Shown piece by piece: positions 17,615 to 34,454 of a stretch of DNA of 64,000 bases (position 1 is its first letter; every line of letters starts with the position of its first letter). Source of the DNA: Planctomycetia bacterium (GTDB lineage: Bacteria; Planctomycetota; Planctomycetia; Pirellulales; UBA1268). The stretch spans positions 2,623 to 66,622 of the forward strand of contig BJHK01000001.1 in NCBI GenBank assembly GCA_014192425.1, in the 5' to 3' direction. The notes below the pieces were generated by a model, which was not told where the DNA came from, did no database searches, and saw nothing but the letters and a program-made list of their open reading frames with translations. Position numbers and translations under genes: made by a program.

Positions 17615-18718
17615 CTATGGGACGGGTGTCAGTTCGTCAACGATAGCACGGCTGGCGAGTCCCTCCAGCAGCCGGTCCGGCACGGGGGAAACGGCCGCCA
17701 GCAGCGATCCGACGACCGCCGCACGGTGGCAGTTGTCGCCGCCGCACAGGGCGTTGGCCCGGATGCCCGCCGCGAAGTCGCCCGCATGCCGGGCGGCCAG
17801 ATACAAGGCCGCCGGGAAGGCATCGTCGATGTAGCAGGCGGGGCTGAGCACGGTCCCGACGACGGCCCTGTCGGGGCATGTGGCCGGGCCGCGGCCGGCG
17901 CGGCGGTCCCAGTCGGCGAGTTTCGCGGCGGACGCCCAGTCGCCGGCCTCTTCGATGATCGTCTCGCGCAGGTCGCGAGGCCCGTCCGGTCGATCGGGCC
18001 GGGTGAGGCGGACGAGGATCCGGGCGAGGGCGTCGGCGGCGGCGAGGACGTCGTCGTCCCGATGGGTGAGCGAGACGTGCAGCCGCACGATCCGGCGGAT
18101 GTCGGGATGCCGGGGCCCAAGGCCGGCGACGATCGCCGGCACGGTGGCGAGGCCGCCGATGTGGACGTCGCGGACGCCGCAACTGATCGGCTTGCGGCCG
18201 CTGCCGAGGTTCGTGAAGAAGTGCCGATGGTATTCCTCGACGTAGGTGTCGCGATGCCGGCCCGGCTCGGTCATGAAGGCCACGTACCGCTCCAGCCAGC
18301 GTTCCGGGTCGTACTCCCGGTCGCGGCGCAAGAGGGCGAACAGTTCCACCGCGAGCCGGTAATTGAGCGTGTTGTCGCCGGCGGCGAGGAACTGGTGGTA
18401 GTGGATGCCGCGCCGTCCCCAGTACTGCGCCTGCTCGCGCAGGATGTCCGCCTCTGGCGTCGGTGGCGTGTAGCTCGATCGCCAGAGGATGCTGTCTGGA
18501 TGTGGCGACCGCGGCGCGAGGTAGGTGGGCGGGACCGCCGGGTCGGCGAGATGCGAATAGTCGCGGTCGAGCGCCGCGGTGTCGTAGTACCAATGGACGG
18601 GCATGGCGACGGCGTCGGCGACGAGGCTGCCGAGGAACGCCTGCAGGCTCGTGTCGGCGCGGTGATCCGCCGGCTGGGAGGGTGCGGACTCGGGTGCGGA
18701 CGTCGAATGGTTCGTCAT
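17615..18718 (-). CDS. ADP-ribosylglycohydrolase-family protein (divergent)
   Basis: 367 aa. The N-terminal LGSLVADAVAMPVHWYY, the mid GDNTLN and the C-terminal CGGDNCHRAAVVGSLLAA align by eye with the ARH-fold metal motifs. Its stop lies 14 nt upstream of the ovoA start, and it has an ATGA overlap with the ABC ATPase. Confidence 0.75.
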   Translation of the reverse strand: MTNHSTSAPESAPSQPADHRADTSLQAFLGSLVADAVAMPVHWYYDTAALDRDYSHLADPAVPPTYLAPRSPHPDSILWRSSYTPPTPEADILREQAQYWGRRGIHYHQFLAAGDNTLNYRLAVELFALLRRDREYDPERWLERYVAFMTEPGRHRDTYVEEYHRHFFTNLGSGRKPISCGVRDVHIGGLATVPAIVAGLGPRHPDIRRIVRLHVSLTHRDDDVLAAADALARILVRLTRPDRPDGPRDLRETIIEEAGDWASAAKLADWDRRAGRGPATCPDRAVVGTVLSPACYIDDAFPAALYLAARHAGDFAAGIRANALCGGDNCHRAAVVGSLLAAVSPVPDRLLEGLASRAIVDELTPVP

Positions 18719-19461
18719 GACAGCGGCTCCCGGCGCAGGAAGGCCCGGACGCGCGGCGCGGCGGGGCGGTCGAAAAAGTCGTCGCTCGGAGCGTGGGCGA
18801 GGACGCGGCCGTCGGCGATGAACGCCACTTCGTCGGCGGCCCGGCGGGCAAAGTCCATCTCGTGGGTCACGAGCACGAATTGCGTGCCGCCCTCCCGCAG
18901 TTCGCCGATCATCGCCAGCACCTCGGTCGCCATCTCCGGATCGAGTGCCGACGTCGGCTCGTCGAGAAACAGCCGCTGCGGGCGGACGACCAGTGCCCGC
19001 AGGATCGCGATCCGCTGCCGCTGCCCGCCGGAGAGTTCGGCCGGCCGCTTGCCGGCGTGTTCCTCGAGCCCGAACCGGCGCAGCGGTTCCCGCACCCGCT
19101 CGGCGGCGGCGGCAGGCGACAGCCCGTGCACTCGGACCAGGGGAAGCAGAAGATTGTCCATGGCGGTGAGATGCGGAAACAGGTTGAATGCTTGAAAAAC
19201 CGTGCCCACGGTGCGCCGATAACCGCCCAGCCCCCGCTCGTCGCGGGGCAGCGGCACGCCGTCGAAGGAAACGCCCCCCGCCACGGGCACGTCGAGCCCG
19301 GCGAGAATCCGCAGGAGCGTCGACTTTCCGCCACCCGAGGGGCCGACGAGGACAAGCGTGCGGATCGGGCCGGTCTCGAGGTCGAGCCGGTCGAGCACGG
19401 TGGCCTGGCCGCCGTCGGGCCGGGGGAACCGCTGCACGAGGCCGTGGATGGAGAGTCGCAT
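18715..19461 (-). CDS. polar amino-acid ABC transporter ATP-binding protein (GlnQ/HisP type)
   Basis: GPSGGGKSTLLR, VFQAFNLFPHLT, LSGGQRQRIAILRAL, LFLDEPTSALDPE. Confidence 0.9.
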   Translation of the reverse strand: MRLSIHGLVQRFPRPDGGQATVLDRLDLETGPIRTLVLVGPSGGGKSTLLRILAGLDVPVAGGVSFDGVPLPRDERGLGGYRRTVGTVFQAFNLFPHLTAMDNLLLPLVRVHGLSPAAAAERVREPLRRFGLEEHAGKRPAELSGGQRQRIAILRALVVRPQRLFLDEPTSALDPEMATEVLAMIGELREGGTQFVLVTHEMDFARRAADEVAFIADGRVLAHAPSDDFFDRPAAPRVRAFLRREPLS

Positions 19462-19476
19462 GGGGGGTGGCGCGGC

Positions 19477-20214
19477 TCAGGCGACCTCGTAGCGCAGGCG
19501 ACGTTCCAGCCAGCGCGAGACCGCGGCCAGCGGGAGCGTGAGGATCAGATAGCCGACGGCCAGCGGCAGGTAGGTCTCCAGCGTCGCGTAGGTGAAGGAG
19601 TTGACCTCCTGGGCGGCGAGCGTGAACTCGGCGATCGAGAGCACGGAGAGTAGCGACGAGTCCTTGACGAGCGAGACGAACTGGCCGGCAACGGCCGGCA
19701 GCACGATCCGCACCGCCTGCGGGAGGACGACGAACCGCTGGATCTGCCAGGGCGAGAGGCCGATCGCCCGGCCGCTGTCGATCTGGGTCCGCGGAATGGC
19801 ATCGATGCCGGCGCGGAAGATCTCAGCCATGTAGGCACCGCTGAACAGCGAGAGCAGGAGAACGCCGGCGACGTAGCGGTTGTGGAGGCCGATGGCCGTG
19901 CCGACGAAGTAGAAGCCGAGGAGCAGTTGGACGAGCAGCGGCGTGCCGCGGATCAATTCGACGTACACCCGGGCCGCGGCCGCGGGGAGCGGGCGTCCGG
20001 AGCGGAGCAGGGCGGCGGCGAGGCTGCCGACGAGCGTGCTGACGACGAGCGCGGCGAGGCTCAACGCCACCGTCATCAGCCAGCCGTGAAAAAGTTTCTC
20101 CCGGTACTCCCACACCCCCGACCAGTTCCAGGCGACGTCGACCCGGGCTGCCGCCAGGGCGACGGCGCCGCCAAGCGCTGCGACGACGATCGTGAAGGCG
20201 AGCCAGCGGGGCAT
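19477..20214 (-). CDS. polar amino-acid ABC transporter permease (HisM/GlnP type)
   Basis: ATG at 20214 (MPRWLAF). YVELIRGTPLLVQL and EAA-loop-like DSGRAIGLSPWQ motifs. The track ORF to 21870 is an over-extension. Confidence 0.9.
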   Translation of the reverse strand: MPRWLAFTIVVAALGGAVALAAARVDVAWNWSGVWEYREKLFHGWLMTVALSLAALVVSTLVGSLAAALLRSGRPLPAAAARVYVELIRGTPLLVQLLLGFYFVGTAIGLHNRYVAGVLLLSLFSGAYMAEIFRAGIDAIPRTQIDSGRAIGLSPWQIQRFVVLPQAVRIVLPAVAGQFVSLVKDSSLLSVLSIAEFTLAAQEVNSFTYATLETYLPLAVGYLILTLPLAAVSRWLERRLRYEVA

Positions 20215-20331
20215 GCGGCGAGGATACCATGTTGGAGAGTCGCCACGGTGGCCGCACGGCGTTTGGCCCGCTGTCTTCGGCAGACGAACACTTTGCGTCC
20301 GATCCTCGTTCCCGCCCGGCGCGTGACTGCC

Positions 20332-21474
20332 ATGAGTTCCACCCCCGTCCGCTGGCTCGCCGAGCAGCTTCCCGCCTGGGAACGTGAGGGGATCGTCACC
20401 GCGGACGGGGCACGGGTGCTCCGCGAGCGATACGCGGCCGAGCCCCGCGGCGGCCTGGCGCAAATGATCGTGGCCGCGATCGGCGCGCTGCTCATCGGCA
20501 CCGGGCTGATCGCGGTGCTGGCCTACAACTGGGACGACTTCCCGCGCTGGGTGCGGCTGTCGCTGGCGCTCGGGCCGCTCGCGGCGTCGCAGGCCGCGAG
20601 CTGGTGGGTGCTGCAGCGCGGCGCGGCCGCCACACGGTGGCAGCGCGAGGCGGTCGCGCTTCTGCAGGCGCTGGCCGTCGGGGCTGCGATGGCGCTCGTG
20701 TCCCAGATCTACAACCTGCCGGGGCAGTGGACCGACCTCGTCTTCTGGTGGTGCGTGGTCGCCGTGCCGCTGGCCTGGGTGCTGGAATCCGACGCCGTGG
20801 CGATCGCCTACCTGCTGGGCATCGCGACCTGGACCATCGCGCAGGCTCGGCCCTTCACCGGCGAGGGGGCCGACTGCCGCATCTGGTATCCGCTCCTCCT
20901 CGCCGGCATCCTGCCCCGCTGGCCGGGCGCCGACCTCCGCGGCCGGCCCCAGCCGGGCAGTCGGGCGGTTCTCGCCCTGTCCGCCCTGGCCGGCCTGATC
21001 GCCGTGGCGGCGGACTCCCGTCAAAGGTTGAACTCCGATCATGCGTCGGTCTGGCTCACGATGCTGACGGCTGCCGCCGTGCTCCTCTTTCCACTCGACC
21101 GGCGGGGGATCGCCGAACCGCTCTCCCGCAAGCCGCAGGTCCTGCTCGGCGGGATCGTGCTCGTCACGCTGGCGCTGGTCGCCAGTTTCGAGGATCCGGC
21201 CCGGGGTCTCCTCGAGGGCGTCGCGCGGGCGATGCCGCTCGGCTGGTGCTGGCTGCTGCTGACGGTCGTGGCGGCCTTCGCGGCCCTGGCCCTGTGGCAG
21301 GGCCGGTACGCCGTGGTGGCGGTCGCGGCACTTGCGGTCGTGCCGCTGCTCGCCGATGCCGATGGCCTGTCGCGGATCGAGTCGCTGTCGCTGGAGCTCG
21401 TGTCGGGCCCGACCGTGATTCGCCTCGTGGCCGGGCAGGGCTGGCGGGAAGACGATGCCGTGACCATCGAGTGA
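20332..21474 (+). CDS. DUF2157-like polytopic membrane protein
   Basis: N-terminus WLAEQLPAWEREGIVTADGARVLRERY followed by many TM helices. It ends at a TGA that is followed in frame by a GDYXXLXY-like tail (next feature). Confidence 0.75.
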   Translation: MSSTPVRWLAEQLPAWEREGIVTADGARVLRERYAAEPRGGLAQMIVAAIGALLIGTGLIAVLAYNWDDFPRWVRLSLALGPLAASQAASWWVLQRGAAATRWQREAVALLQALAVGAAMALVSQIYNLPGQWTDLVFWWCVVAVPLAWVLESDAVAIAYLLGIATWTIAQARPFTGEGADCRIWYPLLLAGILPRWPGADLRGRPQPGSRAVLALSALAGLIAVAADSRQRLNSDHASVWLTMLTAAAVLLFPLDRRGIAEPLSRKPQVLLGGIVLVTLALVASFEDPARGLLEGVARAMPLGWCWLLLTVVAAFAALALWQGRYAVVAVAALAVVPLLADADGLSRIESLSLELVSGPTVIRLVAGQGWREDDAVTIE

Positions 21475-21660
21475 CCATTCGACCGCTTCTACCTCAACGA
21501 GCGGCTCGCCCCCGACGCCGACAGGCTCGTCGCGGAGCGATTCCAGGAGGGAAACAAACCGGTCGCCGAGTGCCGTCTTCTCGACGGCCGTGCCGTGCTC
21601 ACCGACATCCTCGTGGACGGCACGTCGATCCGCGAGGTCGTCCGGCAGCAAAACCGCTGA
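21475..21660 (+). pseudogene. 62-codon in-frame continuation resembling the C-terminal part of a GDYXXLXY-family domain
   Basis: No start codon of its own. Translation PFDRFYLNERLAPDADRLVAERFQEGNKPVAECRLLDGRAVLTDILVDG resembles the FF-x-EG...G-x-x-L tail of GDYXXLXY proteins, which normally accompany DUF2157 genes. Confidence 0.35.
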
Positions 21661-21707
21661 GCCGGCCACGGCCGGAGCTGCCGCCGCAGCGGGGCCGGCC
21701 GCCCGCC

Positions 21708-22481
21708 TCAGAAGAAGAACGGGATCGCGCGATCCTTGAAGTAGGCCTTCTCCGCGGCGAGGAACTCGTCGCCGAGCCGCTCGAAGCCGCCAGCGGCACG
21801 GAACGTCCCCAGGAACTCGTTCACCCGGCGCCTGAGGTTGTCGTCGCCGGGCCGCAGCCCCACCGCCCACGTCTCCTCCCGGAAGGGCGCGAGCAGGGCC
21901 CGCGTCTGCTCGGGGTGCCGCTTGTGATGCTGGTAGACCGAGAGCGGATCGTAGATGAAGGCGTCGGCCTTCCCCTGCACGACCTCAAGGGCCGCCGCCG
22001 ACTCCTTGTCGAGCACGAGCAGGCGGGCCTTCTTGAGGCCCGTCGCGGCGTACTGGTGGCCGGTCGTCCCCTTCTTGACAGCGATCACCCGGCCGGGGGC
22101 GTCGAGGTCGGCAGCGGATTGCAGCGGCGACTTCGCCGCCACGAGGAGCGCCAGCCCGGTCTTGAGATACGGCTCCGAGAAGGCGATCGTCTTCGCCCGC
22201 TCGGGCGTGGCCGTGAGCGACGAGATGATGCAGTCGATCTTGCCCGTCCGCAGCGCGGGGATGAGCCCGTCAAAGGGAATGTTTTCGATGACGAGCTCGC
22301 GGCCGAGGTGCCGCGCCAGTTCCTCCGCCAGCCGGACGCTCACGCCCGTCGGCCGCCCCTGCTTGTCCGTCATCTCGAAGGGCGGATAGGAGAGCTCCAT
22401 GCCGACGCGGAGCGGCGGCTCGGCCGCCGACACGATGGCTGACAAGGCGCAGGTGAGGAACCAGGGAACGAACCGGTGCAT
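21708..22481 (-). CDS. polar amino-acid ABC transporter substrate-binding protein
   Basis: ATG at 22481. Signal peptide MHRFVPWFLTCALSAIVSA. LRVGMELSYPPFE, GKIDCIISSLT and FSEPY motifs of family-3 binding proteins. Confidence 0.85.
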   Translation of the reverse strand: MHRFVPWFLTCALSAIVSAAEPPLRVGMELSYPPFEMTDKQGRPTGVSVRLAEELARHLGRELVIENIPFDGLIPALRTGKIDCIISSLTATPERAKTIAFSEPYLKTGLALLVAAKSPLQSAADLDAPGRVIAVKKGTTGHQYAATGLKKARLLVLDKESAAALEVVQGKADAFIYDPLSVYQHHKRHPEQTRALLAPFREETWAVGLRPGDDNLRRRVNEFLGTFRAAGGFERLGDEFLAAEKAYFKDRAIPFFF

Positions 22482-22519: not shown

Positions 22520-23689
22520 TCAGGCCGCCGGCCGGGCCGCGAGCGCCGTCTCGGGCAGCGGCTCGACCGGATCGAGACGCCCGCCGGGGCCGATGGCGTA
22601 CGTCCGGCCACGCCAGGTTACCGTGCGCACGGCGAACGAGGCGAACCAGCCGACGAAGTAGACCGCATCCTTGAGGAGGATCGCGGCGACGTGCCGCGGG
22701 GCGAGGGCCTGGGCCCGCAGCAGCCGGGCAGCCGAGACCTCGAGGAGGATTTTCAGCGCCGCGACCGCAGGCACGCAGAGGGCGTAGTCGGTGGCGAGGA
22801 GCGGGAGCGTCCAGGGGACGGGGTTGAGGACGAGCTCCAGGGGGTAGGCCCACGGGCAGATGCGGCGGCGCAGCCCGGAGTGGCGCAGGTGCCGCTGCAC
22901 GAGGCCGCACCACGACCAGGCGCGGTGCACGATCCGCACCGGCACCGGGGCGAGCCGCAGCTTCCCGCCGGCCTCGGCCACCAGCCGCGAGAGGACGAAG
23001 TCGTCGGCGCCGTGGTCGCGGACGTCGGCGAAGCCGCCGGCGTCGTCGAGGGCCCGGCGGCGGACCCACTGTCCCTTGGCGTTCACGGCGTGCTGTCCCG
23101 CGACGATCGCGGCGCCGATCGAGAGCAGACCGGCGAACTCGGTGTAGTGCAGGTTCTCGATCGCCGCCGGCAGCGTGCACTCGCCGATGCCGACCACCGG
23201 CTGGTAGACCATCCCCACCCGCGGGTCGGCGAAGCAGGGGAGCACGCGACCGATCTCGTCGGCGGCGACGCGGACATTGCTATCGGAGAGGAGGATCAAG
23301 TCGTGCCGGGCGTGCGGCAGCAGCGACTCGAGAAGCCCGACCTTCGGGCTGGCGGCGTCGCTGTCACCGCCGAGCACGATCGCCACGTCGCGATTCGGAT
23401 ACCGGCGGGCGAGCCTGCGGACGACATCCAGCGCCGGATCGCCGGCATCGGCCGCGCCGAACACGAGCTGCAACGGTTCGTGTGCGAGCAGGAAGAAAGA
23501 CCGGAGGTTGGCCTCGAGGTCCTCGTCGAAGCCGCACAGCGGCTTGAGGATCGTGACGCCTGTGAGGTCGGCGGCAGGTGTGCGGCGCGATCCGGCGCGG
23601 CTCCAGCGGACCGTCACGAGCCACGCGGTGGCGTAGAGGCCGAGGCCCGTGGCGGCGACGGCAAGCAGGCAGGCGGTCAGGGCGGTCAT
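22520..23689 (-). CDS. glycosyltransferase, ceramide-glucosyltransferase-like (GT21/GT2 type)
   Basis: N-terminal TM helix, VTILKPLCGFDEDLEANL opening typical of the family, LLSDSNV acidic motif, C-terminal TM segments. Confidence 0.7.
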   Translation of the reverse strand: MTALTACLLAVAATGLGLYATAWLVTVRWSRAGSRRTPAADLTGVTILKPLCGFDEDLEANLRSFFLLAHEPLQLVFGAADAGDPALDVVRRLARRYPNRDVAIVLGGDSDAASPKVGLLESLLPHARHDLILLSDSNVRVAADEIGRVLPCFADPRVGMVYQPVVGIGECTLPAAIENLHYTEFAGLLSIGAAIVAGQHAVNAKGQWVRRRALDDAGGFADVRDHGADDFVLSRLVAEAGGKLRLAPVPVRIVHRAWSWCGLVQRHLRHSGLRRRICPWAYPLELVLNPVPWTLPLLATDYALCVPAVAALKILLEVSAARLLRAQALAPRHVAAILLKDAVYFVGWFASFAVRTVTWRGRTYAIGPGGRLDPVEPLPETALAARPAA

Positions 23690-23831: not shown

Positions 23832-24926
23832 CTACGGCGCGGCCTCGGTGAACGGACCCTCGAGGACCGCCTCCGGCTGGTCGCGGCGGCCGTCCGCGTC
23901 GATCACCACCTTGGCCTGGGGGAGGAGCTCCGGCGGAAACCGCCACACGGTGCGGTCGTAGCCCGGGGCGGCGAGATTGACCGAGAGCCGGGGGGGGATC
24001 TCGCGGGCCGTCTCGCCAATCGGGATCGTCGCCGGATCGGCGCCGGCGAGGATGTCGCCCGCGGTCCGCCCGGCGAGCAGGCCGACCTCGCGAAAGTCGA
24101 AGCCGACGTCGAACAGGGTGCCCCGGTTCGGCGCGCCGGGGACGACCGAGAAGACCGGGATCCGGGCCTTGGCCGCCGTCGCGATCACCGACTCGACCAC
24201 GCTGGCGATGGTCGTGTCGCCCGGCACGAAGATCACCTCGGCGCCGCGGGCGATCGTCGCCTGGAGGGCCTCGATCACACCGGCCGAGTTCTCCACCGCC
24301 GCCTCGAGGAGCTCGATGCGCCGGGCGGCGCACGACGCCCGGGCGAGTTCCATGAAGCGGCGCGAGTTGCTCTCGGAGGGATTGTGGGCCACGCCCACGC
24401 GGCGGACCGCGGGATTGACCCGCTGGAGGATCCCGAACGTCGCGTCCACGGGCGCCAGGCTGCCGTAGCCAACGAGGTGCGCCGGGTGCACGAGCGGATC
24501 GGCGCGGTCGAGGCCCACGCCCGCGGAGCAGGGGTCGGCGACCGCCGCGAAGACGTGGCGGATCCGGCCGCGCTTGTTCGCCGTCGCCACAGCCTGCAGC
24601 GACGGTGTGCTCGAGGTGAGCACGATGTCGAACGGGCCGTTGACGATTTCCCGCGCGATGGCGTTGGCCTGGGCCGCGTCGCCCTCGGCGTTGTAGCGCC
24701 GGATCGTCACCGTCCGCCCGTCGCTGAAGCCGCGTTCGGCGAGCCCCTCGATCATGCCGCGGACAGCGTCATCGAGCACGGCCGTGCTCACCTGCTGGAG
24801 CACGGCCACGGCGGGCAGCCGCCGGGCTGCGGCGCCGCGGTCGGTGGCGAGGAGCAGCGCCGAGGCGCCGCCGAGGAGCGCGAGCGTGGGGAGGCACTGG
24901 CGGAGGAACGACACGGGCACGGACAT
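23832..24926 (-). CDS. ABC transporter substrate-binding protein (PF04392-like, unknown ligand)
   Basis: ATG at 24926, signal-like N-terminus. Periplasmic-binding-fold pattern (VAVLQQVSTAVLDDAVRGMIEGL ... IFVPGDTT). Follows the cognate ATPase and permease. Confidence 0.8.
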   Translation of the reverse strand: MSVPVSFLRQCLPTLALLGGASALLLATDRGAAARRLPAVAVLQQVSTAVLDDAVRGMIEGLAERGFSDGRTVTIRRYNAEGDAAQANAIAREIVNGPFDIVLTSSTPSLQAVATANKRGRIRHVFAAVADPCSAGVGLDRADPLVHPAHLVGYGSLAPVDATFGILQRVNPAVRRVGVAHNPSESNSRRFMELARASCAARRIELLEAAVENSAGVIEALQATIARGAEVIFVPGDTTIASVVESVIATAAKARIPVFSVVPGAPNRGTLFDVGFDFREVGLLAGRTAGDILAGADPATIPIGETAREIPPRLSVNLAAPGYDRTVWRFPPELLPQAKVVIDADGRRDQPEAVLEGPFTEAAP

Positions 24927-24940
24927 GGGACGGGCTCCCC

Positions 24941-25813
24941 TCAGGCGTAGCGGTCGGCGAGCGTCCGGGCCGCGGTGTCGTCGAGCTGGTCGGCGCGACG
25001 CAGCCGGTCGAAGCGGTCGGCGAGATCCTCGGCGCCGAGACGGCGCTTGGCGGCTCCGGACGCGTCGATCGCCAGCCGGCCGCGGTGCACGAGCAGCAGC
25101 CGGTCGCCGAGCGACGCCGCCTGGGTAAGCGAGTGGGTCACCATCAGCGCGGTGAGGTTGTCCTCGCGGACGATCCGAGCCGTGGCCTGCACGACCCGGT
25201 CGGCGGCTGCGGGGTCGAGGGCGGCGGTGTGCTCGTCGAGGAGAAGGAGCTCGGGCCGGTGCCAGGTCGCCTTGAGCAGCGTGACGATCTGCCGCTGCCC
25301 TCCGGAGAGCGACCCGATCGGCTGGTCGAGCCTGCCCTCCAGGCCGGGCACGATCGCTGCCAGCCGGGCGGCGGCCTCGGCACGCAGCGACTTCGACGTC
25401 GCCCAGCCGAGACCGGCGGGCCTGCCCCGGCAGGCGGCCACGGCGAGGTTCTCGATCACTGTCAGGCTGCCCGCCGTGCCGGCCCGCGGATCCTGGAACA
25501 CGCGGCCGATGAGCCGGGCACGTTCGTGCTCTTGCCAGGCCGTGATGTCGTGGCCGGCGAGGTGGATGCTGCCGGAGTCGAGACGCACCGTGCCGGCGAT
25601 CGAGCCGAGCAGCGTGCTCTTGCCGGAGCCGTTCGTGCCGACGACGACGACGAACGTGCCGCGCGGCACGGCCAGCGAGATGCCGTCCACGGCGTGGACG
25701 AGCGGTCCGCCCGGGGCGGTGAAGCTGACGCGGGCGGCGCGGAGCTCGAGGTGCGGGGGGGCGTCCGCGGGCGCTGCGGCCGCGGAGCGGGGATCGTGCA
25801 GGGCTGCGGTCAT
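24941..25813 (-). CDS. ABC transporter ATP-binding protein
   Basis: GTNGSGKSTLL, LSGGQRQIVTLL, LLLLDEHTAALD. ATGA-type overlap with the permease at 25810-25813. Confidence 0.9.
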   Translation of the reverse strand: MTAALHDPRSAAAAPADAPPHLELRAARVSFTAPGGPLVHAVDGISLAVPRGTFVVVVGTNGSGKSTLLGSIAGTVRLDSGSIHLAGHDITAWQEHERARLIGRVFQDPRAGTAGSLTVIENLAVAACRGRPAGLGWATSKSLRAEAAARLAAIVPGLEGRLDQPIGSLSGGQRQIVTLLKATWHRPELLLLDEHTAALDPAAADRVVQATARIVREDNLTALMVTHSLTQAASLGDRLLLVHRGRLAIDASGAAKRRLGAEDLADRFDRLRRADQLDDTAARTLADRYA

Positions 25814-26721
25814 CGGGCCACCTGTCTGCGGCCGCGGACCAGGAACCGGGGCGCGACGAGGGCGGCGAGCACGACCGCCGCGGTGGCGGCCTTGAGCCAG
25901 TCCGGATCGAGGCCGGCCCGCAGCGCCGCGGCGACGAGGAGCCGGAAGCTGACGCTGCCGGCGGCCGTCGCCAGCAGGGCCCCGCCGAGCCGCACCTCGC
26001 CGACGAGGGCGTTGCCGAGAAACACGCTCGCCATCCCCCAGACCACCATGCCGATCCCCATCTGCACGTCGGTGAAGCCCTGGTACTGGGCGACGATCGC
26101 ACCGGACAGGGCCGTGAGCGCATTGGCGATCGCCAGGCCGGCCACGGTGAGCAGGCCGGTGTCGCGGCCGAGCGCCCGGGCCATCGTCGGCGTGTCGCCG
26201 CCGGCCCGCATCGCCGTCCCGAGCCGGGTGCGGAAAAACGCCCACAGGCCGACGATCGCGATGCCCACGGTCGCCGCCACGAACAGCAGCCGGGCCAGTT
26301 CGCCCGCCACCTCGGCGGAGCAGCCGAGCGTTGCGCAGGCGGGGGCGAGCAGGCTCTCCGCCCGGTCGAGCAGCGTCACGATGCCCGACAGTGGCACATT
26401 GCTGCGGCCGAGGAGGACGAGATTCACGCTGGCCAGCGTGGTCGTCATGAGGATGCCGGCGAGCAGCGGTTCGATGCCGAGGAAGGCGTGGAGCAGGGCG
26501 GTGCAGCCCCCGGCCGCGGCCCCCGCCGCCAGGGCGGCGAGCGTGGCCGCGGCGGGATCGACACCGGCGGTCAGGAGCACCGCGGCGACGACGGCGCCGA
26601 GCGTGAACGAGCCGTCGGTCGTGATGTCGGGAAACTTGAACAGCCGGTAACTCACGAACACGCCGAGGGCCACGAGCCCGAGCGCCAGGCCGAACGTCCA
26701 GGTCGAGAGCAGCGTGATCAT
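25810..26721 (-). CDS. ABC transporter permease (branched/BMP-type fold)
   Basis: ATG at 26721 (MITLLSTW), about 10 hydrophobic segments. 4-nt overlap with the STAS gene at 26718-26721. Confidence 0.85.
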   Translation of the reverse strand: MITLLSTWTFGLALGLVALGVFVSYRLFKFPDITTDGSFTLGAVVAAVLLTAGVDPAAATLAALAAGAAAGGCTALLHAFLGIEPLLAGILMTTTLASVNLVLLGRSNVPLSGIVTLLDRAESLLAPACATLGCSAEVAGELARLLFVAATVGIAIVGLWAFFRTRLGTAMRAGGDTPTMARALGRDTGLLTVAGLAIANALTALSGAIVAQYQGFTDVQMGIGMVVWGMASVFLGNALVGEVRLGGALLATAAGSVSFRLLVAAALRAGLDPDWLKAATAAVVLAALVAPRFLVRGRRQVAR

Positions 26722-27989
26722 GAGGCCCTCCCTGCGCCGACGACGAGCGGCGCGAACCAGCAGCCGCCGCGGACGAACTCCGACTCGCCGCTGCCCAGCA
26801 CCGGCTGCGGGTCGGCGACGAGGTGCACGACCGCCAGCGGCGCCGACGCCGCGAGGGTATCGATCGTGTCGATGAAGTCGAGCGGTCCGCGCCTGAGGGG
26901 ATGGAGGGGAAAGACCGCCGCGTGCAGGTGGCCGTGGATGGTGCCGGCGGCGTCCAGCGGCCGGACGAAGTCGGCCAGCGGCCCCATCGGGATGCCGCGG
27001 GCGGCCACGCCGGCGACAAGCGCCGTCCGGCGTGCGTGGACGGGTTCGCAGGAGAAGCACAGCCAGCGGGCGGCGACGTCCCGGTCGCCGGACCACGGAT
27101 GGTCGGTCGGCGTCGCCTCGGCCAGCGGACGGATCAGTTCCGCGGCCACGAGGCCGCGCACCTCGACCGCCATGACGACCGCGATGACGTCGGCGGCGGC
27201 GCTGTCGAGGAGGGGGGCGAGGAGGCTGGCAAGCCGCAGGCCGGCGCCGTCGGGCGTCTCGAAGCCGGTCCGGCCACCGGGCACGCCCTGCCAGACGAGG
27301 CCGGAGACAAAAGCCGCGTCGGCCACGAGGTCGCCGCTGCCGACGAGATAATCGACGGCGGCGAATGGCTGCGGCGGGCGGTGGAACACGGCGCCACCGA
27401 CCCCGAGCAGTTCACCGGCCCGAGCGTCGGCTTCGGCCGTGTCGCCGAGTGCGGCCAGTCCGATCGCGCAGGCGTGCCGCGGCAAGGGGCGTCGCACCAC
27501 ACCACCCTGCTGCGGGAAGCCGCGAGTCGTGTCCAGCCCGCCGACGAGTTCGGCCCGCAGCGGTCCGGCCGGGGAAGGCTCCAGGCCCACGAGGTCGAAG
27601 CCGGACACGTGCACGATCGCCGGCCCGGCCGTTCGCGGTCCACTCGTGGTCGGCGTCTCGGGTCTGCGGCCGTCCGGCTGCGGTCCCGCCATGAGGATCG
27701 GCGTCAGCCGGGTCAGGTCGAGTACCTTCCGCACGGGCTCGCTTGCCTGCACGATCAGGCAGCTGCCACCGGCCTGCTTCGCGGCCCGCTGGTTTTCGAA
27801 GAGGACGCGGATGCCCGCCGAGCTCAGGAAGGAGATGGCCGTGAAGTCGAGCTCGACGGCTTGGATGCCGCGACGCAACTCCTCCGCGACGGCCAGGCCG
27901 AGGTCGGAGGCCGATTCGGCGTCGAGCCGGCCGCCGACGGCGAGCACGACCCGGTCGTCCCGCTCATCCCGCACGATCGTGATATCCAT
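26718..27989 (-). CDS. STAS-domain (SpoIIAA-like) protein fused to an uncharacterised ~300-aa C-terminal domain
   Basis: The first ~100 aa (VLAVGGRLDAESASDL ... LDFTAISFLSSAGIRVL ... VRKVLDLTRL) match the anti-sigma-antagonist STAS pattern, including the conserved Ser. The remainder has no motif I recognise. Confidence 0.7.
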   Translation of the reverse strand: MDITIVRDERDDRVVLAVGGRLDAESASDLGLAVAEELRRGIQAVELDFTAISFLSSAGIRVLFENQRAAKQAGGSCLIVQASEPVRKVLDLTRLTPILMAGPQPDGRRPETPTTSGPRTAGPAIVHVSGFDLVGLEPSPAGPLRAELVGGLDTTRGFPQQGGVVRRPLPRHACAIGLAALGDTAEADARAGELLGVGGAVFHRPPQPFAAVDYLVGSGDLVADAAFVSGLVWQGVPGGRTGFETPDGAGLRLASLLAPLLDSAAADVIAVVMAVEVRGLVAAELIRPLAEATPTDHPWSGDRDVAARWLCFSCEPVHARRTALVAGVAARGIPMGPLADFVRPLDAAGTIHGHLHAAVFPLHPLRRGPLDFIDTIDTLAASAPLAVVHLVADPQPVLGSGESEFVRGGCWFAPLVVGAGRAS

Positions 27990-28223
27990 CGCCTTCGGCC
28001 TGCCTCGTCGTTGCGGCGCACGCGGTGCTAACCCGCCGAGAGAACCGGCATAGAGTAGCCGATGGCAGGACCGCCGCGGGGCGAATGTGCCGTGGCGCCG
28101 GTTTGCTGGTTGGGGCCGAAGAACCGCTGTATGCTTTCTGAGAGGTCACATGCTACGCGGCGAATCGCTCGTCCGCGGCCTGTCGCCCACCTCGATCGGC
28201 TGCCGGCCCGCAATTCGCCTGCC

Positions 28224-30218
28224 ATGCCCTCAGACTCCGACATCGATTCCGCTGCTGGCCCGGTCTGTCCTGGTCCCGTCTATCGCGGGCCGCTGCCCCC
28301 CGGCAATACGGTCGAGCGGGCCCCCGTGACCGTCTACGACGCCGCCGGCGAGGCGAGCCGGGCGGTGGCCCAGGAGATCGCCGACCTCGTCGCCGCGCGG
28401 GCGGCGGCGGGCCGGCAGGTGGTCCTCGGGCTGGCCACGGGGAGCACGCCCGTGGGCGTGTATCGCGAGCTCGTCCGGCTGCACCGCGAGGAAGGTTTGT
28501 CGTTCCGCAACGTCGTCACCTTCAACCTCGACGAATACTGGCCGCTATCCCCCGACGCGCCGCAGAGCTACCACCGCTTCATGCGCGAGCAGCTCTTCGA
28601 CCACATCGACATCGAACCCACCGCGGTCCACATCCCGGATGGGACCGAGTCGCGGGCGTCCCTCCTCGACGCCTGCGCCCTCTACGAGGAGCGGATTCGT
28701 GCCGCGGGCGGGATCGACCTGCAGCTGCTGGGGATCGGCCGCACCGGGCATATCGGCTTCAACGAGCCGGGCAGTCCGGTGGAGAGCCGCACCCGTCTGA
28801 TCACGCTCGACCGCGTCACGCGGGCCGACGCGGCGGGGGATTTTTCCGGCGAGCGCAACGTGCCGCGGCAGGCGATCACGATGGGGGTGGGCACGATCCT
28901 CGACGCCCGGCGGATCCTGCTCCTCGCCTTCGGCGAGCACAAGGCGCCCGTCGTGCGCCGGGCCGTCGAGCAGGCCCCCGACCTGCTCGTGACAGCGAGC
29001 GTCCTGCAGCGGCACCCCGACGCCCGCTTCGTGCTCGACCGCTCGGCGGCGTCGCGGCTGTCGCGGTTCGAGTCGCCGTGGCTGGTGGGGCCGCTGGAGG
29101 CGATGGGGCTCGGCTGGACCGAGCCGCTGACCCGCAAGGCGGTGATCTGGCTGGCCCAGCAGGTCGGCAAGCCGATCCTCAAGCTTGTGGACGAGGACTA
29201 CAACGAGCACGGCCTGCAGGACCTGCTCTCGGCGCGGGGCCGGGCCTACGACCTCAACATCGAGGTCTTTCGGGCGCTGCAGGACACGATCACCGGCTGG
29301 CCCGGCGGCCGGCCCGGAAAGCCGCGCCGGATCCGGGGACTGGCATCGGCTGCGGAGGAGTTTCCCAAGCGGATCGTCGTCTTCAGCCCGCACCCCGACG
29401 ACGACGTGATCGGCATGGGGGGAACGTTCATCCGGCTCTGCGAGCAGGGGCATGAGGTGCACGTCGCCTACCAGACGAGCGGCAGCATGGCCGTGTGGGA
29501 CGAGTCCGCCGAGCGGCATGTGGAGTTTGCCGAGGAATGGTGCCGGGCCTTCGGGATCGGCGACGCGGCCGGCACGGTCGCCGGTCACATCCGCGGCCTG
29601 CTCCGCGCCGGCGCTGGCGGCGCGCCCGACGAGGTGCGCACCGTGAAGGCGCTGATCCGGCGGACCGAGGCCCGGGCCGCCGCCCGCTACTCCGGCGTCG
29701 CGCCGGAGCGGATCCACTTTCTCGACCTTCCGTTCTACGAGACCGGTACCGTGCGCAAGCGGCCCGTCGGGGCGGAGGACGTGCGGATCGTGGCCGAACT
29801 GCTCGACCGCGTCCGGCCGCACCAGGTGTATGCCGCCGGCGACCTCGCCGACCCGCACGGCACCCATCGCGTCTGCCTCGGCATCGTGACGAAGGCGCTG
29901 GCGGAACTCGGCGACCGGCCGTGGGCCGAACGCTGCGAGGTCTGGCTGTATCGCGGTGCCTGGCAGGAGTGGGAGCCGCACGAGATCGACATGGCGGTCC
30001 CGCTGTCGCCGGACGAGGTCGAGCGGAAGCGGCTGGCGATCTTCAAGCACGAGAGTCAGAAGGATCGGTCCCTGTTCCCGGGATCCACGGATGCCCGTGA
30101 GTTCTGGCAGCGGGCCGAGGACTGCACCCGGGAAACCGCCCGCCTCTACGACACGCTGGGCCTGCCCGAGTACGAAGCGATCGAGGGCTTCGCGCTCTTG
30201 CAGCACCGCGGGTCGTAG
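28224..30218 (+). CDS. nagB: glucosamine-6-phosphate deaminase (NagB) fused to an LmbE/PIG-L-type deacetylase domain
   Basis: N-half: LGLATGSTPVGVY, TFNLDEY, LGIGRTGHIGFNEPGS. C-half: VVFSPHPDDDVIGMGG and HVAYQTSGS of the LmbE family. Start taken at the ATG at 28224. Confidence 0.85.
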   Translation: MPSDSDIDSAAGPVCPGPVYRGPLPPGNTVERAPVTVYDAAGEASRAVAQEIADLVAARAAAGRQVVLGLATGSTPVGVYRELVRLHREEGLSFRNVVTFNLDEYWPLSPDAPQSYHRFMREQLFDHIDIEPTAVHIPDGTESRASLLDACALYEERIRAAGGIDLQLLGIGRTGHIGFNEPGSPVESRTRLITLDRVTRADAAGDFSGERNVPRQAITMGVGTILDARRILLLAFGEHKAPVVRRAVEQAPDLLVTASVLQRHPDARFVLDRSAASRLSRFESPWLVGPLEAMGLGWTEPLTRKAVIWLAQQVGKPILKLVDEDYNEHGLQDLLSARGRAYDLNIEVFRALQDTITGWPGGRPGKPRRIRGLASAAEEFPKRIVVFSPHPDDDVIGMGGTFIRLCEQGHEVHVAYQTSGSMAVWDESAERHVEFAEEWCRAFGIGDAAGTVAGHIRGLLRAGAGGAPDEVRTVKALIRRTEARAAARYSGVAPERIHFLDLPFYETGTVRKRPVGAEDVRIVAELLDRVRPHQVYAAGDLADPHGTHRVCLGIVTKALAELGDRPWAERCEVWLYRGAWQEWEPHEIDMAVPLSPDEVERKRLAIFKHESQKDRSLFPGSTDAREFWQRAEDCTRETARLYDTLGLPEYEAIEGFALLQHRGS

Positions 30219-30288: not shown

Positions 30289-32040
30289 TCATTCGGACCG
30301 CGGCTGCTTTCCGTCGTTGGCCCGCATGAGCATGTCCCAGACGCCGTCGGCCTCCGTGGATTGAAAGGACGCGTTCGGACCGCCCCCCATGTTGGGATCC
30401 CGGCCCACCTGCCTGCCTTCGGTGTCGGAGTCGGACTTCTCGCGTCGGGATACCGAGTTCTTGATGGGCCTTACCGAGCCGTCGCACATCGCCACCATCA
30501 GGATGTCGCCATGGTTGGCCTGGGAACGTATGGCGGAGCATTCCTGGGGCTTTGGCTGCGACTGGAACATGAACGTGTTGGCAAACTGCAGACCTTTCAC
30601 ATTTCTGGCATCGGACTCCCACTCGATGCCGAAACTGTGAGTCCAGGGCTTCCATTCGACATCTGTCGGACGGGGCATCGTGTTGTCGTCTGGAAATTCA
30701 TTCCAGTTGGTTCTGCCAGCCGAGTACGGATGCGGCTCAATGGCGAGCCGCACGGCACTCGACCTCACGTGTTGCGCTCCTGACGGAATCCACGAGGGGT
30801 CATCCGGATTCATAGCCACGTCGACGACCGTCCCCAGTCGCGGGCTGCTCCAGAATGCCAACCGCGCCATGTCGACGTAGCGATTTACCGGCGTTGGAAA
30901 GCTCGCACCGTCGGCATACACGACCGACGAGCAGTACCGCATCGCCTCGGCGAGGAGGATCGTGTTCGCCTGGCCATCCTTGATGTGGTCGAAGGAACGC
31001 GGTCTCCACGAGGTGATCTCGTAGCGGCCGGTGCCGAACGGACTCAGATGGGCTTGGGGTTCCACTCGTAGGGACGCTTCGGTGCTGGACACGGCCGCGA
31101 ACACGTGCGGGTTGGCGAGGTAGTTGGTTGTCGACCACTGCCGGCCGCCCAGCCATGTGAGCTTGGTGGATGACTCGATCACGCTGTTGTCACCCTTACA
31201 GACGGTGAGCGGCACGCGGATCCCTTCCTGGGCGGCCGGATAGTTTGGGAGGTTGAAATAGGGATAGCGGAAATTTTTGGCCAATCCCAGCCCCCTGTGC
31301 TGGCCGTAGCGAGGGTCAGTCGTGCCGGAGAAATACGGTTCGATCCATCGGGGCGGGGAGACCTGCTGCACTGTTCCGATCTGCGTCGCTTTTGTCCGGC
31401 GCACCGTGTAGGTCGCCCCGTTCATGCCAAAAGCCGTTTCCACGATGGTTTCGTACTTGTACGTTGGAATGGTCGTCGTGCCGCCCGGAGACATGGATCC
31501 GGCAATGAGCATCGTCCCGGAGGAGTTGACATTGCCCTCGACGAACGAATTACCCTCGATCACCGCCACCGAGGGGTTTGTATGCACGTTGAACGTCACG
31601 CCGTCGTCCAACGTCCTCTGCAGCGCCTCTGTCTTTGGGATCATGCCTTCGCCGCGGAGGGCTTCGCCCGGCACGTTCGGCCAATAGCGATACCCCAAGC
31701 AGACCTTCGCTTTGGGAAGTTTGAGGTACTCGGACTGCATCTCGATGTCGGGCAGCACATGGCCGAGCCAGCTGGTGAAGACGGGAGCCGCCCGTTGCGT
31801 CGACTCAAACGGATAGGCACCCCAGAACGGGGGCAGCGACCCGTTGCGGTTGTGAAAACTCGTGATTGCCTTGGCGAGTTGCCGCAGGTTGTTGCCACAG
31901 TCAGTGCGTCGGCCCGCGCTGCGGACCATTTGAACGGCCGGCAGCAGTATGGCCATCAGCCCGGCCAGGATCGCCACGACGACCAGGAGTTCGACGAGCG
32001 TGAACGCTCTCGTGACGCCACGCCGCTTACAGGTTCGCAT
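30289..32040 (-). CDS. DUF1559-family protein with prepilin-type N-terminal cleavage/methylation motif
   Basis: ATG at 32040: MRTCKRRGVTRAFTLVELLVVVAILAGLMAILLPAVQ...CGNNLRQLA, the planctomycete DUF1559 signature. 583 aa. Visibly lower GC than the neighbours. Confidence 0.85.
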   Translation of the reverse strand: MRTCKRRGVTRAFTLVELLVVVAILAGLMAILLPAVQMVRSAGRRTDCGNNLRQLAKAITSFHNRNGSLPPFWGAYPFESTQRAAPVFTSWLGHVLPDIEMQSEYLKLPKAKVCLGYRYWPNVPGEALRGEGMIPKTEALQRTLDDGVTFNVHTNPSVAVIEGNSFVEGNVNSSGTMLIAGSMSPGGTTTIPTYKYETIVETAFGMNGATYTVRRTKATQIGTVQQVSPPRWIEPYFSGTTDPRYGQHRGLGLAKNFRYPYFNLPNYPAAQEGIRVPLTVCKGDNSVIESSTKLTWLGGRQWSTTNYLANPHVFAAVSSTEASLRVEPQAHLSPFGTGRYEITSWRPRSFDHIKDGQANTILLAEAMRYCSSVVYADGASFPTPVNRYVDMARLAFWSSPRLGTVVDVAMNPDDPSWIPSGAQHVRSSAVRLAIEPHPYSAGRTNWNEFPDDNTMPRPTDVEWKPWTHSFGIEWESDARNVKGLQFANTFMFQSQPKPQECSAIRSQANHGDILMVAMCDGSVRPIKNSVSRREKSDSDTEGRQVGRDPNMGGGPNASFQSTEADGVWDMLMRANDGKQPRSE

Positions 32041-32159
32041 GCCAGCCCCTCCTCTAGGAATGAACTGATGCCGGGGACACCTAAGGATCTCATCGGTCGG
32101 CCGGGAGACCCGTCGCCACATCGAATTGTCCGTCTGGCCCGAGGGATCGTCAAGCGGGA

Positions 32160-32248
32160 AAACCAGCGGGCATGGGTGCCGCCTGGCCTCGCCCTCCGGG
32201 CTCGCCAGGCTTTGGCACCGTCCGGTGCCTGGTGCTGGGCGGGAATCG
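32160..32248. repeat. solo degenerate copy of the tRNA-Arg-associated repeat unit
   Basis: AACCAGCGGGC (32160-32171) plus 63 nt (32181-32243) identical to the array units at 40839-41716, same orientation. Homology runs up to the ISAs1 left end. Confidence 0.85.
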
Positions 32249-33372
32249 CAGGGCCGACGCAAACTTTACGCCGGGATTTGCAGGACTGTGAAGAGGTAGG
32301 CGGGATTCCAGCCGGCCATCCTTCGCCGCATGGCGATGCTTTCCTTGTCGTTGACCTGCTTCAGCAGGCTGATCGCGAAGCGTGTGAGCCAGGCGATATT
32401 GTCAGCCAAGAGGCGATTACGGACGCGACTTTCGTCCTCCCTGAAGGTAACGTCCAGACACCAATGCAACGTGTTCTCGATACCCCATTGTCCGCGGACG
32501 TTTGCTGCGAACTGCTTGATGCCTACGCGGAGTGAGCTGATGGAGTACCGCACGTCGTGGGTCGTCCTGTCCGCTTGAGTGCTCGTCCGGATGGCCACGC
32601 CGATCGTTCTCATGCCCTTCCAGTGTTGCTGGCCCGGCAGATCGGCAGGCACCGACATCTGACAGTAGGTGATCTCGTCCGTTCGCCCGTGTCCCTTGAC
32701 CGTCTCGGTGTGCGTGCGGAGCCCCGGGGAGGAAAAGTCATTTTCCACGTGCGCGTCGAAGCACTCCACGACAGCGTCGTGCAGCGCTTCCTGGTTGCCT
32801 TTCAGTGTCAGGACGTAATCTCCGCCGCCCTCGATGATCTTGGCGGCGATCGTTTTCTGACACCCGGCGGCGTCGATCGTGACGATCGATCCCTTGACGT
32901 CGATGGCAATGATCTCACGCTCCCCGTCCTTGCGGTTCGCGGCCAGCCGGCGGATCCAGTTCTCAAAGCAAGCCTGAAAGGCAGCCGGCTTCAAAGCCAT
33001 CAGCACGCCACCGATTGTGTCGTGTGCCGGCGCTCCATTGGGCAACTGCAAACGGTTCCTCAACCAGTCCGCGTTGCTTTCCGCCCACCGCCCGATCGCT
33101 TTGGGTCCTGCCGCGCCCGCGATGACCGCCATGATGCAGATAACCACCAGGTCGCTCAGAAGGTGCAGGCGGTTGATGTGCGATCGAGGATCCGGCAGGA
33201 CTGCAACCTCCTCCAAAATGCTTTTGACATCCATGTCCAGAACGACTTCGGTATTCCCTGGCACAGCTGTATCTCCGGCGACGGCTTCGAGGGAAACTCC
33301 TGACGAAGCCAATCATCGCCGCTACAGGCTTGCCGCGCCAGCCGAGATTGCCCAGAGTGCGCGCCGGCCCTG
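32249..33372 (-). mobile_element. ISAs1-family insertion sequence, internally deleted
   Basis: Candidate imperfect terminal inverted repeats: CAGGGCCGACGCAAAC (32249-32264) and the reverse complement of 33357-33372, CAGGGCCGGCGCGCAC (13/16 match). One transposase ORF. No target duplication seen. Confidence 0.7.
32266..33234 (-). pseudogene. ISAs1-family (H-repeat type) transposase with an in-frame internal deletion
   Basis: DPRS...HLLSDLVVICIMAVIAGA, GGDYVLTLKGNQ and RGQWGIENTLHWCLDVTFREDESR match ISAs1. IAIDVKGSIVTIDAAGCQ joins two motifs that are, from memory of family members, roughly 55-60 aa apart. The track ORF extends to 33312. Confidence 0.65.
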
Positions 33373-33386
33373 GGGCGTCACCGGTC

Positions 33387-34454
33387 CTACACTTCTACTG
33401 AAGTGTCGCCAGCGGGTGTGACCGGGTCCACGCCGACGGGGATACGTTTGATGCGCCGGGCCGCCTGCACGATGTGAACGACCTGATCAAGGACGACCGC
33501 CACCAGGATCACGGCGCCGACGATGATGAACGTCCAGTTCGGGTTCAGGCGCCACAACCGCGGAATTCCGCCGTCGTCGTCGTAACGGAGCTGGAACATG
33601 TTGATGCCGTTGTCGATGACCCGCATGATCGCCGAGCCGATGATGATGCCCAGCACCGTTCCCTCGCCGCCGCGCAGGGAGCAGCCGCCCAGCACCACGG
33701 CCGCGATCGCGTAAAGCTCGTACGCGACCCCGACCTGTTGCGACATCTGGCCGATGTACGCCGCGTAACAAACGCCCGCGATCCCCGCCAACCCCGACGA
33801 GATCACGTACGTCAACGTTTCGACCTTCTTGACGTTGATACCCGAATACTCGGCCGCGTCGCGGTTGCCGCCGATGGCGTACACATAGCGGCCGAATACC
33901 GTGAAATGCAGGACGTAGGTCCCGATACCCGCCACCATCAGGAACATCAGGAACGGATAAGGCACCAAGGGATCGCCGCTGATCTGGAGCAGACCGCCGT
34001 TGGCCAATCCCAGCAAAGGGGATCTGCCCATGCTCAGCGTTCCGCCCTCGACAATGGTCTGTGAAACGCCGCGGACCAGCAGCATGCCACCCAGCGTGAC
34101 GATGAATGGTTGCAACTTCAGGCGCGTGATCAGGAGGCCCTGCGTCAGCCCGACCAGCAGCGCGGCGGCAAGCGCCATACCGATCCCCAACCACAGCGGG
34201 TAAGCCAGGCCGCCGGTCGCATGCGACGACATCTTGGCGATGATGACGCCGGTTAGACCGACCACGGAGCCGACCGACAGGTCGATTCCGCCAGCGATGA
34301 TCACGAACCCGATGCCAATCGCGTAGATCCCCAGCATCGAAATCTGTCGCAACGTATTGATGGCGTTCGATGGCCCCAGAAAATCAGGGTTCGAGATGAA
34401 AAGCACCAGGCACATCACGACCAATGCCACGAACATGCCCAACTCGCGTCTCAT
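33387..34454 (-). CDS. sugar ABC transporter permease (RbsC-like)
   Basis: 355 aa. GIDLSVGSVVGL and typical ribose/monosaccharide permease pattern. ATGA overlap with the ATPase at 34451-34454. Confidence 0.9.
   Translation of the reverse strand: MRRELGMFVALVVMCLVLFISNPDFLGPSNAINTLRQISMLGIYAIGIGFVIIAGGIDLSVGSVVGLTGVIIAKMSSHATGGLAYPLWLGIGMALAAALLVGLTQGLLITRLKLQPFIVTLGGMLLVRGVSQTIVEGGTLSMGRSPLLGLANGGLLQISGDPLVPYPFLMFLMVAGIGTYVLHFTVFGRYVYAIGGNRDAAEYSGINVKKVETLTYVISSGLAGIAGVCYAAYIGQMSQQVGVAYELYAIAAVVLGGCSLRGGEGTVLGIIIGSAIMRVIDNGINMFQLRYDDDGGIPRLWRLNPNWTFIIVGAVILVAVVLDQVVHIVQAARRIKRIPVGVDPVTPAGDTSVEV

Follow-up and report, generated by a model that had tools for sequence, protein, structure and literature searches.

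What does a STAS-domain protein do as the leading gene of an operon for a binding-protein-dependent ATP-binding cassette (ABC) importer? This question is raised by a gene, here termed STAS-X, at 26718-27989 on the minus strand of a 64,000-nucleotide stretch of DNA from a Planctomycetia bacterium (contig BJHK01000001.1, positions 2,623 to 66,622; the whole stretch is referred to as the window). The post-translational regulation of ABC importers is poorly understood, and the arrangement points to an undescribed control of, or chemical coupling to, ABC import. We tentatively propose, with a confidence that stays somewhat below even, that STAS-X is a cytoplasmic fourth component of a TrpXYZ-type importer, with a STAS domain for docking, a phospho-switch, and a C-terminal domain that would handle the cargo.

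STAS-X is a real gene. Its open reading frame (ORF) of 423 aa has an in-frame G+C content at third codon positions of 0.887 and the codon-position G+C profile of a true gene, within a window of about 70% G+C, and the protein is identical to GenBank entry GDX94367.1 ("hypothetical protein LBMAG47_00300", Planctomycetia bacterium), which stems from a metagenome-assembled genome (MAG). An antisense ORF of 402 aa (26823-28031, plus strand) was rejected as a high-GC artefact, as its codon-position G+C mirrors that of STAS-X. A chance ORF can be excluded for STAS-X because its homologues are numerous: the C-terminal domain alone retrieved 373 proteins (E<=1e-3), almost all of 410-460 aa and with STAS at the N-terminus, the named ones from Planctomycetia or Pirellulales, and an exhaustive profile search yielded 702 clusters at 50% identity, 290 of them with E<=1e-30. 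Nearly all family matches are 400-465 aa long and carry an N-terminal STAS domain, which is also present in a distant group within the 702 clusters that scored 150-200 bits. When a distant member was used as the query, a further 450 matches were obtained, with source names including KSB1, Terriglobales, Acidobacteria, and Sulfopaludibacter. Seven short matches were considered as stand-alone C-terminal domains, but four of them are truncated gene calls, as they start in the tail of a STAS domain or lack an initial methionine; two STAS-less ones (P0128 and P0134) are undecidable as to truncation. As the short STAS-less matches are thus mostly truncated gene calls, the two-domain architecture is obligatory in the family. 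A literature search, which was not exhaustive, found no paper describing this architecture.

STAS-X is followed on the same strand by three transporter genes:

25810-26721, minus strand: ABC permease of 303 aa, PF02653 (BPD_transp_2), Pfam E 5.5e-19
24941-25813, minus strand: ABC ATPase of 290 aa, Pfam ABC_tran E 3.9e-27
23832-24926, minus strand: PF04392 (ABC_sub_bind) substrate-binding protein (SBP) with an N-terminal signal or anchor, Pfam E 1.2e-39

The stop codon of STAS-X and the start codon of the permease gene share four nucleotides (ATGA at 26718-26721), as do the stop of the permease gene and the start of the ATPase gene at 25810-25813. Both overlaps had been recognized in the initial annotation, which described one tightly coupled four-gene unit; the unit and all its domain assignments hold, with the minor amendment that the SBP gene starts with an ATG at 24926, 14 nt past the ATPase stop and without overlap. 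A PF04392 SBP, a PF02653 permease, and a single ABC ATPase form a TrpXYZ-type set of parts, the same three as in TrpXYZ of Streptococcus (PF04392 family), which is to our knowledge a three-gene system without a STAS partner. The ligands of structurally solved PF04392 proteins are L-Trp, L-Tyr, or L-Phe (PMC10443332), and TrpX has been described as belonging to a tryptophan uptake system (PMC9382623). The substrate in the window need not be tryptophan, as its SBP scored only 153.7 bits against the TrpX equivalog NF041285, below the cut-off of 390.

A survey of the gene neighborhoods of C-domain homologues, which had been suggested along with the initial annotation, showed that the association with the ABC genes holds in essentially all loci examined and in two deep clades. 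The sample comprised 168 loci, with 85 from Planctomycetes (80 species-level genomes, all of them freshwater Planctomycetota MAGs, and five metagenome contigs) and 83 from a soil/sediment clade (three long contigs and 80 metagenome loci, with named members from KSB1 and from Acidobacteriota, the latter including MAGs of Terriglobales and of the Bryobacterales type). Wherever the contig was long enough, the order STAS-X, permease, ATPase, PF04392 SBP was found in all 85 Planctomycete loci, and about 80 of the 83 soil-clade loci have the order SBP, STAS-X, permease, ATPase. The stop codon of STAS-X and the inferred permease start share four nucleotides in 84 of 84 loci of the Planctomycete clade, and the overall figure is 102 of 162 loci; most loci without this overlap have a gap of at most 13 nt. 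The linkage to the transporter across the 168 loci is essentially universal, and all clades found encode STAS-X together with the transporter, usually translationally coupled to the permease. The flanking genes vary between Planctomycete loci, two of which (L003 and L004) have no other neighbor in common with the window. With 70-93% identity, the transporter proteins are more conserved than STAS-X (50-77%).

Two side aspects of this sample should be noted. In the soil clade, the PF04392 SBP is often a tandem duplication of 655-668 aa with two ABC_sub_bind domains (e.g., L086 5059-7026, L088 5019-6992, and L092 5874-7880). Moreover, several Planctomycete loci come from MAGs titled "Candidatus Kuenenia", "Chitinophagaceae", or "Chitinophaga" (L019, L020, L033, L050, L051, L055, L057, L058, L060, L063, L064, L071, L075, L081, L083, and L084); they carry a Pirellulales-type locus at 50-56% identity, and the titles are probably due to taxonomic mislabeling or mis-binning.

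The N-terminal part of STAS-X comprises the following features:

27690-27989, minus strand: STAS domain, residues 1-100 (PF01740, PF13466, TIGR00377, Foldseek)
27819-27821, minus strand: codon of Ser57, putative phospho-acceptor or interface serine (alignment to the SpoIIAA phospho-serine)
27627-27689, minus strand: linker, residues ~101-121, variable, rich in Pro, Gly, and Ala, predicted to be disordered

Residues 8-98 matched the Pfam family STAS (PF01740; E 2e-13, 50.4 bits with a cut-off of 22.6) and also STAS_2 (PF13466). The anti-sigma factor antagonist model TIGR00377 scored 56.4 bits, just over its cut-off of 53.45, and the SpoIIAA equivalog TIGR02886 remained with 40.9 bits under its cut-off of 114.75. 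The best sequence matches among solved structures were SpoIIAA, TM1442, RsfB, and RsbV, and an AlphaFold2 model of this domain, which had a predicted local distance difference test score (pLDDT) of about 90, matched SpoIIAA, RsbV, RsfB, and MlaB in a Foldseek search of the PDB. Ser57 in the motif FLSSAGIRVL aligns with the phospho-acceptor serine of SpoIIAA, the position that was mutated to alanine in 1tid, and it does not vary among 44 Planctomycete members or across the two clades. The initial view of a STAS domain with a phosphorylatable serine is supported, and residues 1-100 are a bona fide STAS domain. The most conserved stretch, D48..F54-LSSAGIR-L63F64..R68, covers the beta3-alpha2 region around Ser57 and corresponds to the canonical partner-binding surface of STAS domains. 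The linker varies in length and sequence in the alignments, and pLDDT falls below 50 at residues 104-121.

The combination of a leading STAS gene with a binding-protein-dependent ABC importer had initially not been recognized as a described arrangement. The arrangement is not without parallel, as binding of the STAS protein MlaB to the ATPase MlaF has been described (PMC7367683); what remains particular to STAS-X is the domain combination and the transporter class. Like STAS-X, MlaB of the Escherichia coli MlaFEDB system (PDB 6xgy and 6zy3) is a cytoplasmic STAS protein encoded in an ABC operon. The Ser/Thr residue of MlaB at the SpoIIAA phospho-site, Thr52, lies in the center of the MlaF interface, the phosphomimetic exchange T52E weakens binding, and the authors proposed that control of ABC transporters by small STAS proteins may be general, raising the question for other ABC transporters (PMC7367683). 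Unlike STAS-X, MlaB is a minimal single-domain STAS protein of about 100 aa that is not fused to another domain, and it has no known kinase or phosphatase. As the transporter of MlaB is an MCE/MlaE lipid system, whereas that of STAS-X is a PF02653/PF04392 importer without an MCE protein, STAS-X is not a member of the Mla system.

A second group of relatives is formed by SpoIIAA and RsbV, which STAS-X resembles in the TIGR00377 score, the phospho-serine, and, in a part of the family, adjacent genes for an RsbW-like kinase, a PP2C phosphatase, and a single-domain STAS protein. It differs from them by the extra domain of 300 aa and the obligatory transporter linkage, and no sigma/anti-sigma pair was linked to STAS-X in the loci examined. 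The initial annotation was right in that the window contains no RsbW/SpoIIAB-type kinase, as examined by tblastn, and PP2C was not searched exhaustively there. A kinase was also not found in any of the 85 Planctomycete loci. Partner-switching enzymes are nevertheless not absent from the family: nine of the 83 soil-clade loci contain a gene for an RsbW-like HATPase_c_2 kinase, and the two of these that were inspected by Pfam also encode a PP2C protein and a single-domain STAS protein. The order in L092 is sensor histidine kinase, response regulator, response-regulator-PP2C (SpoIIE domain), HATPase_c_2 kinase, and single-domain STAS, followed by tandem SBP, STAS-X, permease, and ATPase. In L116, the genes for a Cache-HAMP-PP2C protein, a HATPase_c_2 kinase, a single-domain STAS protein, a tandem SBP, an ODP-GGDEF protein, and an SBP precede STAS-X and the subsequent genes. 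By guilt by association, this neighborhood suggests a connection of the STAS domain of the family with serine phosphorylation. As a separate observation, three loci encode a GPP34 (GOLPH3-like) protein beside the genes for single-domain STAS or RsbW-like proteins (L086 3743-4393, L090 1-258, and L118 4721-5377), an association that is unusual for a partner-switching module.

The same genes could be read in a different way, namely as a "transceptor", in which the ABC system with its binding protein is mainly a sensor and STAS-X is the output that informs a partner-switching network on the activity of the transporter or on the ligand, with its STAS domain competing for an RsbW-type kinase or an anti-sigma factor. 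STAS-X would then control transcription or some other target and not transport. The complete PP2C-RsbW-single-domain-STAS modules directly upstream in L092 and L116, together with the histidine kinase/response regulator, Cache, and GGDEF genes, a LuxR-type regulator near L086, the invariant phospho-serine, and the TIGR00377 score fit this idea. We nevertheless consider it unlikely: neither a sigma factor nor an anti-sigma kinase is linked in about 90% of the loci, including all Planctomycete ones, STAS-X is strictly coupled in physical terms to the permease gene and not to regulators, and the high identity of the transporter proteins is what would be expected of a working importer.

The C-terminal domain, hereafter C-domain, comprises the following features:

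26718-27626, minus strand: C-domain, residues 122-423 plus stop codon, predicted PTD012/ALDC-like fold (AlphaFold2 and Foldseek)
27411-27413, minus strand: codon of Glu193 in the motif GE[FL]L, invariant in both clades
26922-26930, minus strand: codons of His354-x-His356 (GHxHA), candidate metal ligands, invariant in both clades
26823-26825, minus strand: codon of His389, candidate third metal ligand, in strand 386-390, invariant in both clades

This part of the protein had been described as about 320 residues matching nothing recognizable. With respect to sequence families this is correct, since neither the single sequence of residues ~110-423 nor an 18-sequence profile gave a Pfam, NCBIfam, or PDB sequence match at E<=10, but the suggested AlphaFold/Foldseek check assigned a PTD012/ALDC fold. 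An AlphaFold2 model of full-length STAS-X, built with a 44-sequence alignment, reached a pLDDT of 86 and consisted of the STAS domain, the disordered linker (104-121), and a mostly-beta C-domain; a second model comprised the C-domain alone. The pLDDT of the C-domain was 85-86, and the predicted template modeling (TM) score of the C-domain-only model was 0.87. In Foldseek searches of the PDB with the full model, the C-domain part matched the alpha-acetolactate decarboxylases (ALDCs) 1xv2, 5yho, 4bt3, 6j92, 6inb, and 5xne with target-normalized TM scores of 0.54-0.63; in the two models, the ALDC matches had a probability of 1.00, E-values of 2e-6 to 4e-4, and target-normalized TM scores of 0.52-0.63. 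The top match of the C-domain model was human PTD012/C11orf54 (1xcr; E 9.7e-6, probability 1.00, TM score 0.43-0.44, 328 columns), followed by the same ALDCs and, more weakly, AF0104 (2h6l) and a DUF296/PPC protein (3hwu), and the remaining matches were noise with probabilities below 0.12. We take this list to correspond to the SCOP superfamily "AF0104/ALDC/Ptd012-like". It is well supported by these models that the C-domain shares the zinc-site fold of PTD012/C11orf54, ALDC, and AF0104, and the domain is accordingly an orphan in sequence but not in fold.

Conservation within this predicted fold is pronounced at polar positions. E193, D213, E315, R343, H354, H356, H389, and D393 are invariant between the two clades at an overall identity of about 30%, and it is plausible from this pattern that a metal or active site has been kept. 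In a weak local hhalign match, one of two short motif matches to ALDC in local mode and like the other not significant (P 0.009), GE193 aligned with Glu62 of Bacillus subtilis AlsD in the motif GELIGFDGEFY, and this residue presumably corresponds to the catalytic Glu65 of the B. brevis ALDC. The likeness to ALDC (PF03306) and C11orf54 (DUF1907, PF08925) thus includes, besides the predicted fold, an HxH motif on a beta-strand, conserved Glu and Arg residues, and a GE motif that resembles the region of the ALDC catalytic Glu. The zinc ligands are H194, H196, and H207 in ALDC and H266, H268, and H278 in C11orf54, and the two sets superpose (PMC12337341). C11orf54 was shown in 2025 to be a zinc-dependent beta-keto-L-gulonate decarboxylase, so that both characterized enzymes of the fold, ALDC and C11orf54, are zinc-dependent beta-keto-acid decarboxylases with an HxH...H site (PMC12337341, PMC12435205). 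In STAS-X, the third His is not found at position +10/+11, and the candidate His389 is located 33 residues beyond HxH on the next strand (386-390), after an inserted helix (372-380). Further differences are the lack of significant sequence or profile similarity, the size (about 300 aa as compared to about 235 aa for ALDC), and the fusion to a STAS domain with a tie to a transporter, whereas ALDC and C11orf54 are free-standing enzymes.

Based on this fold and the invariant residues that resemble an active site, STAS-X could also be a soluble first catabolic enzyme for the imported compound, possibly a zinc decarboxylase or a hydrolase, which does not dock to the transporter and whose STAS domain only regulates the enzyme, for instance by phosphorylation or oligomerization. 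Catabolic enzymes are common in uptake operons, and the linker is long and disordered, in agreement with this possibility. Such a soluble enzyme would leave unexplained why the STAS domain is obligatory and has a fully conserved partner-binding face, and why, in different phyla, STAS-X has its place between the genes of the SBP and the permease or overlaps the start of the latter; moreover, no further pathway enzymes are conserved nearby. We therefore judge this explanation to be improbable as well. That the C-domain has lost catalysis and is a ligand-binding regulator that exerts trans-inhibition on the importer, delivered in trans via STAS like that by the C-terminal domains of MetN, ModC, and MalK (regulatory ABC precedents are listed in PMC7367683), would agree with the Arg or Lys at the canonical third-His position (spacing according to PMC12337341) and with the weakly matching AF0104/PPC members of the fold, which are not known enzymes, but is very unlikely, as the invariance of eight polar residues, including the alternative third His, at such low identity is a pattern more common in working metal or catalytic sites.

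According to our proposal of a fourth importer component, the STAS domain would dock STAS-X to the cytoplasmic face of the transporter, most likely to the ATPase, via the beta3-alpha2 surface around Ser57, in analogy to MlaB on MlaF. Docking on the transporter is favored because the best-conserved STAS surface is the one that SpoIIAA uses for SpoIIAB and MlaB for MlaF. An RsbW-type kinase could phosphorylate Ser57 and thereby break the docking, and a PP2C phosphatase could restore it by dephosphorylation, so that the importer would be controlled by partner switching; genes for the two enzymes adjoin the operon in some family members, and in the Planctomycete clade they are presumably located at other sites of the genome. 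The flexibly tethered C-domain may bind the compound that is imported, or the first metabolite formed from it, where the transporter releases it, and it probably also converts this cargo chemically, which would result in a transport metabolon; alternatively, it may sense the cytoplasmic pool and provide feedback. A conceptual likeness exists to the STAS metabolons of SLC26/SulP transporters, in which STAS bridges a transporter and a metabolic enzyme, as with the SLC26 STAS domain and carbonic anhydrase II or with the STAS domain of E. coli YchM and acyl carrier protein. There, STAS is part of a secondary transporter that recruits an enzyme, whereas in STAS-X it belongs to the enzyme-like protein and the transporter is a primary ABC importer. 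In a more far-reaching version, which we regard as quite unlikely, the importer would be gated by a partner-switching phospho-relay and have its own docked zinc decarboxylase, and the cargo would be decarboxylated while leaving the permease, which would render uptake chemically irreversible. We know of no such group-translocation-like mode for ABC transporters.

Several results weigh against the proposed docked, cargo-handling component. Operon membership and translational coupling fit a soluble enzyme equally well. The Foldseek match to MlaB was no better than those to other STAS proteins. Kinase and phosphatase genes adjoin STAS-X in only about 10% of the soil-clade loci, in none of the 85 Planctomycete loci, and not in the window. 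With regard to the C-domain, the Pfam models PF03306 and PF08925 did not match any of 18 STAS-X members at E<=10, an hhalign comparison of the C-domain profile with an ALDC alignment gave probabilities of at most 4% and nothing in global mode, and the position 10-11 residues past HxH is occupied by Arg or Lys, as opposed to the canonical third zinc His. Finally, no conserved metabolic neighbor that points to the substrate was found among the loci examined.

The domain combination and the transporter class of STAS-X are new; STAS accessory proteins of ABC transporters and partner-switching modules whose output is not a sigma factor are known kinds. With 702 clusters from several phyla, among them abundant freshwater Planctomycetota, the family represents a second, independent, and far more widespread case of a STAS protein tied to an ABC transporter. 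Given the predicted fold, STAS-X would be a third, transporter-tethered branch of the small ALDC/C11orf54 decarboxylase fold. Family members carry the misleading annotation "anti-anti-sigma factor" or "hypothetical protein", which can now be replaced by a specific, testable role, and the conserved phospho-site together with the neighboring kinase and phosphatase in some genomes makes the idea of regulation directly testable.

The genes around the four-gene unit were also compared. The SBP gene is followed by a GT21 glycosyltransferase gene (22520-23689, minus strand), a polar amino-acid ABC system with SBP_bac_3, BPD_transp_1, and ABC_tran domains (18715-22478, minus strand), an ADP-ribosylglycohydrolase gene (17615-18718, minus strand), and the gene of an OvoA-like protein of 737 aa with DinB_2, FGE-sulfatase, and methyltransferase domains (15387-17600, minus strand). 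Divergent from STAS-X, a protein of 718 aa is encoded at 28062-30218 on the plus strand, in which a glucosamine-6-phosphate isomerase/6-phosphogluconolactonase-like domain is fused to a PIG-L de-N-acetylase (NagB/PIG-L). All of these were considered as conserved metabolic neighbors that could name the substrate and were rejected, as they are syntenic in the closest relatives only: NagB/PIG-L and GT21 each occur close to STAS-X in 11 of 85 loci of the Planctomycete clade, and the block of OvoA-like, ADP-ribosylglycohydrolase, and polar amino-acid ABC genes is present in L001, L002, L005, and partly in the P0011 locus and is absent in more distant loci. In L005 (12181-14001), GT21 is fused with an SBP_bac_3 binding protein to a product of 606 aa, which is either an odd fusion or a gene-call artefact. 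Between 30000 and 38000 of the window, the G+C content falls from about 0.72 to 0.62-0.65, and this segment may have been acquired. Its genes specify a DUF1559 protein whose N-terminus resembles a prepilin (30289-32262), a DDE transposase of the IS type (32266-33312), and another ABC system, with a permease of family PF02653 (33387-34454) and a double ATPase (34451-36010).

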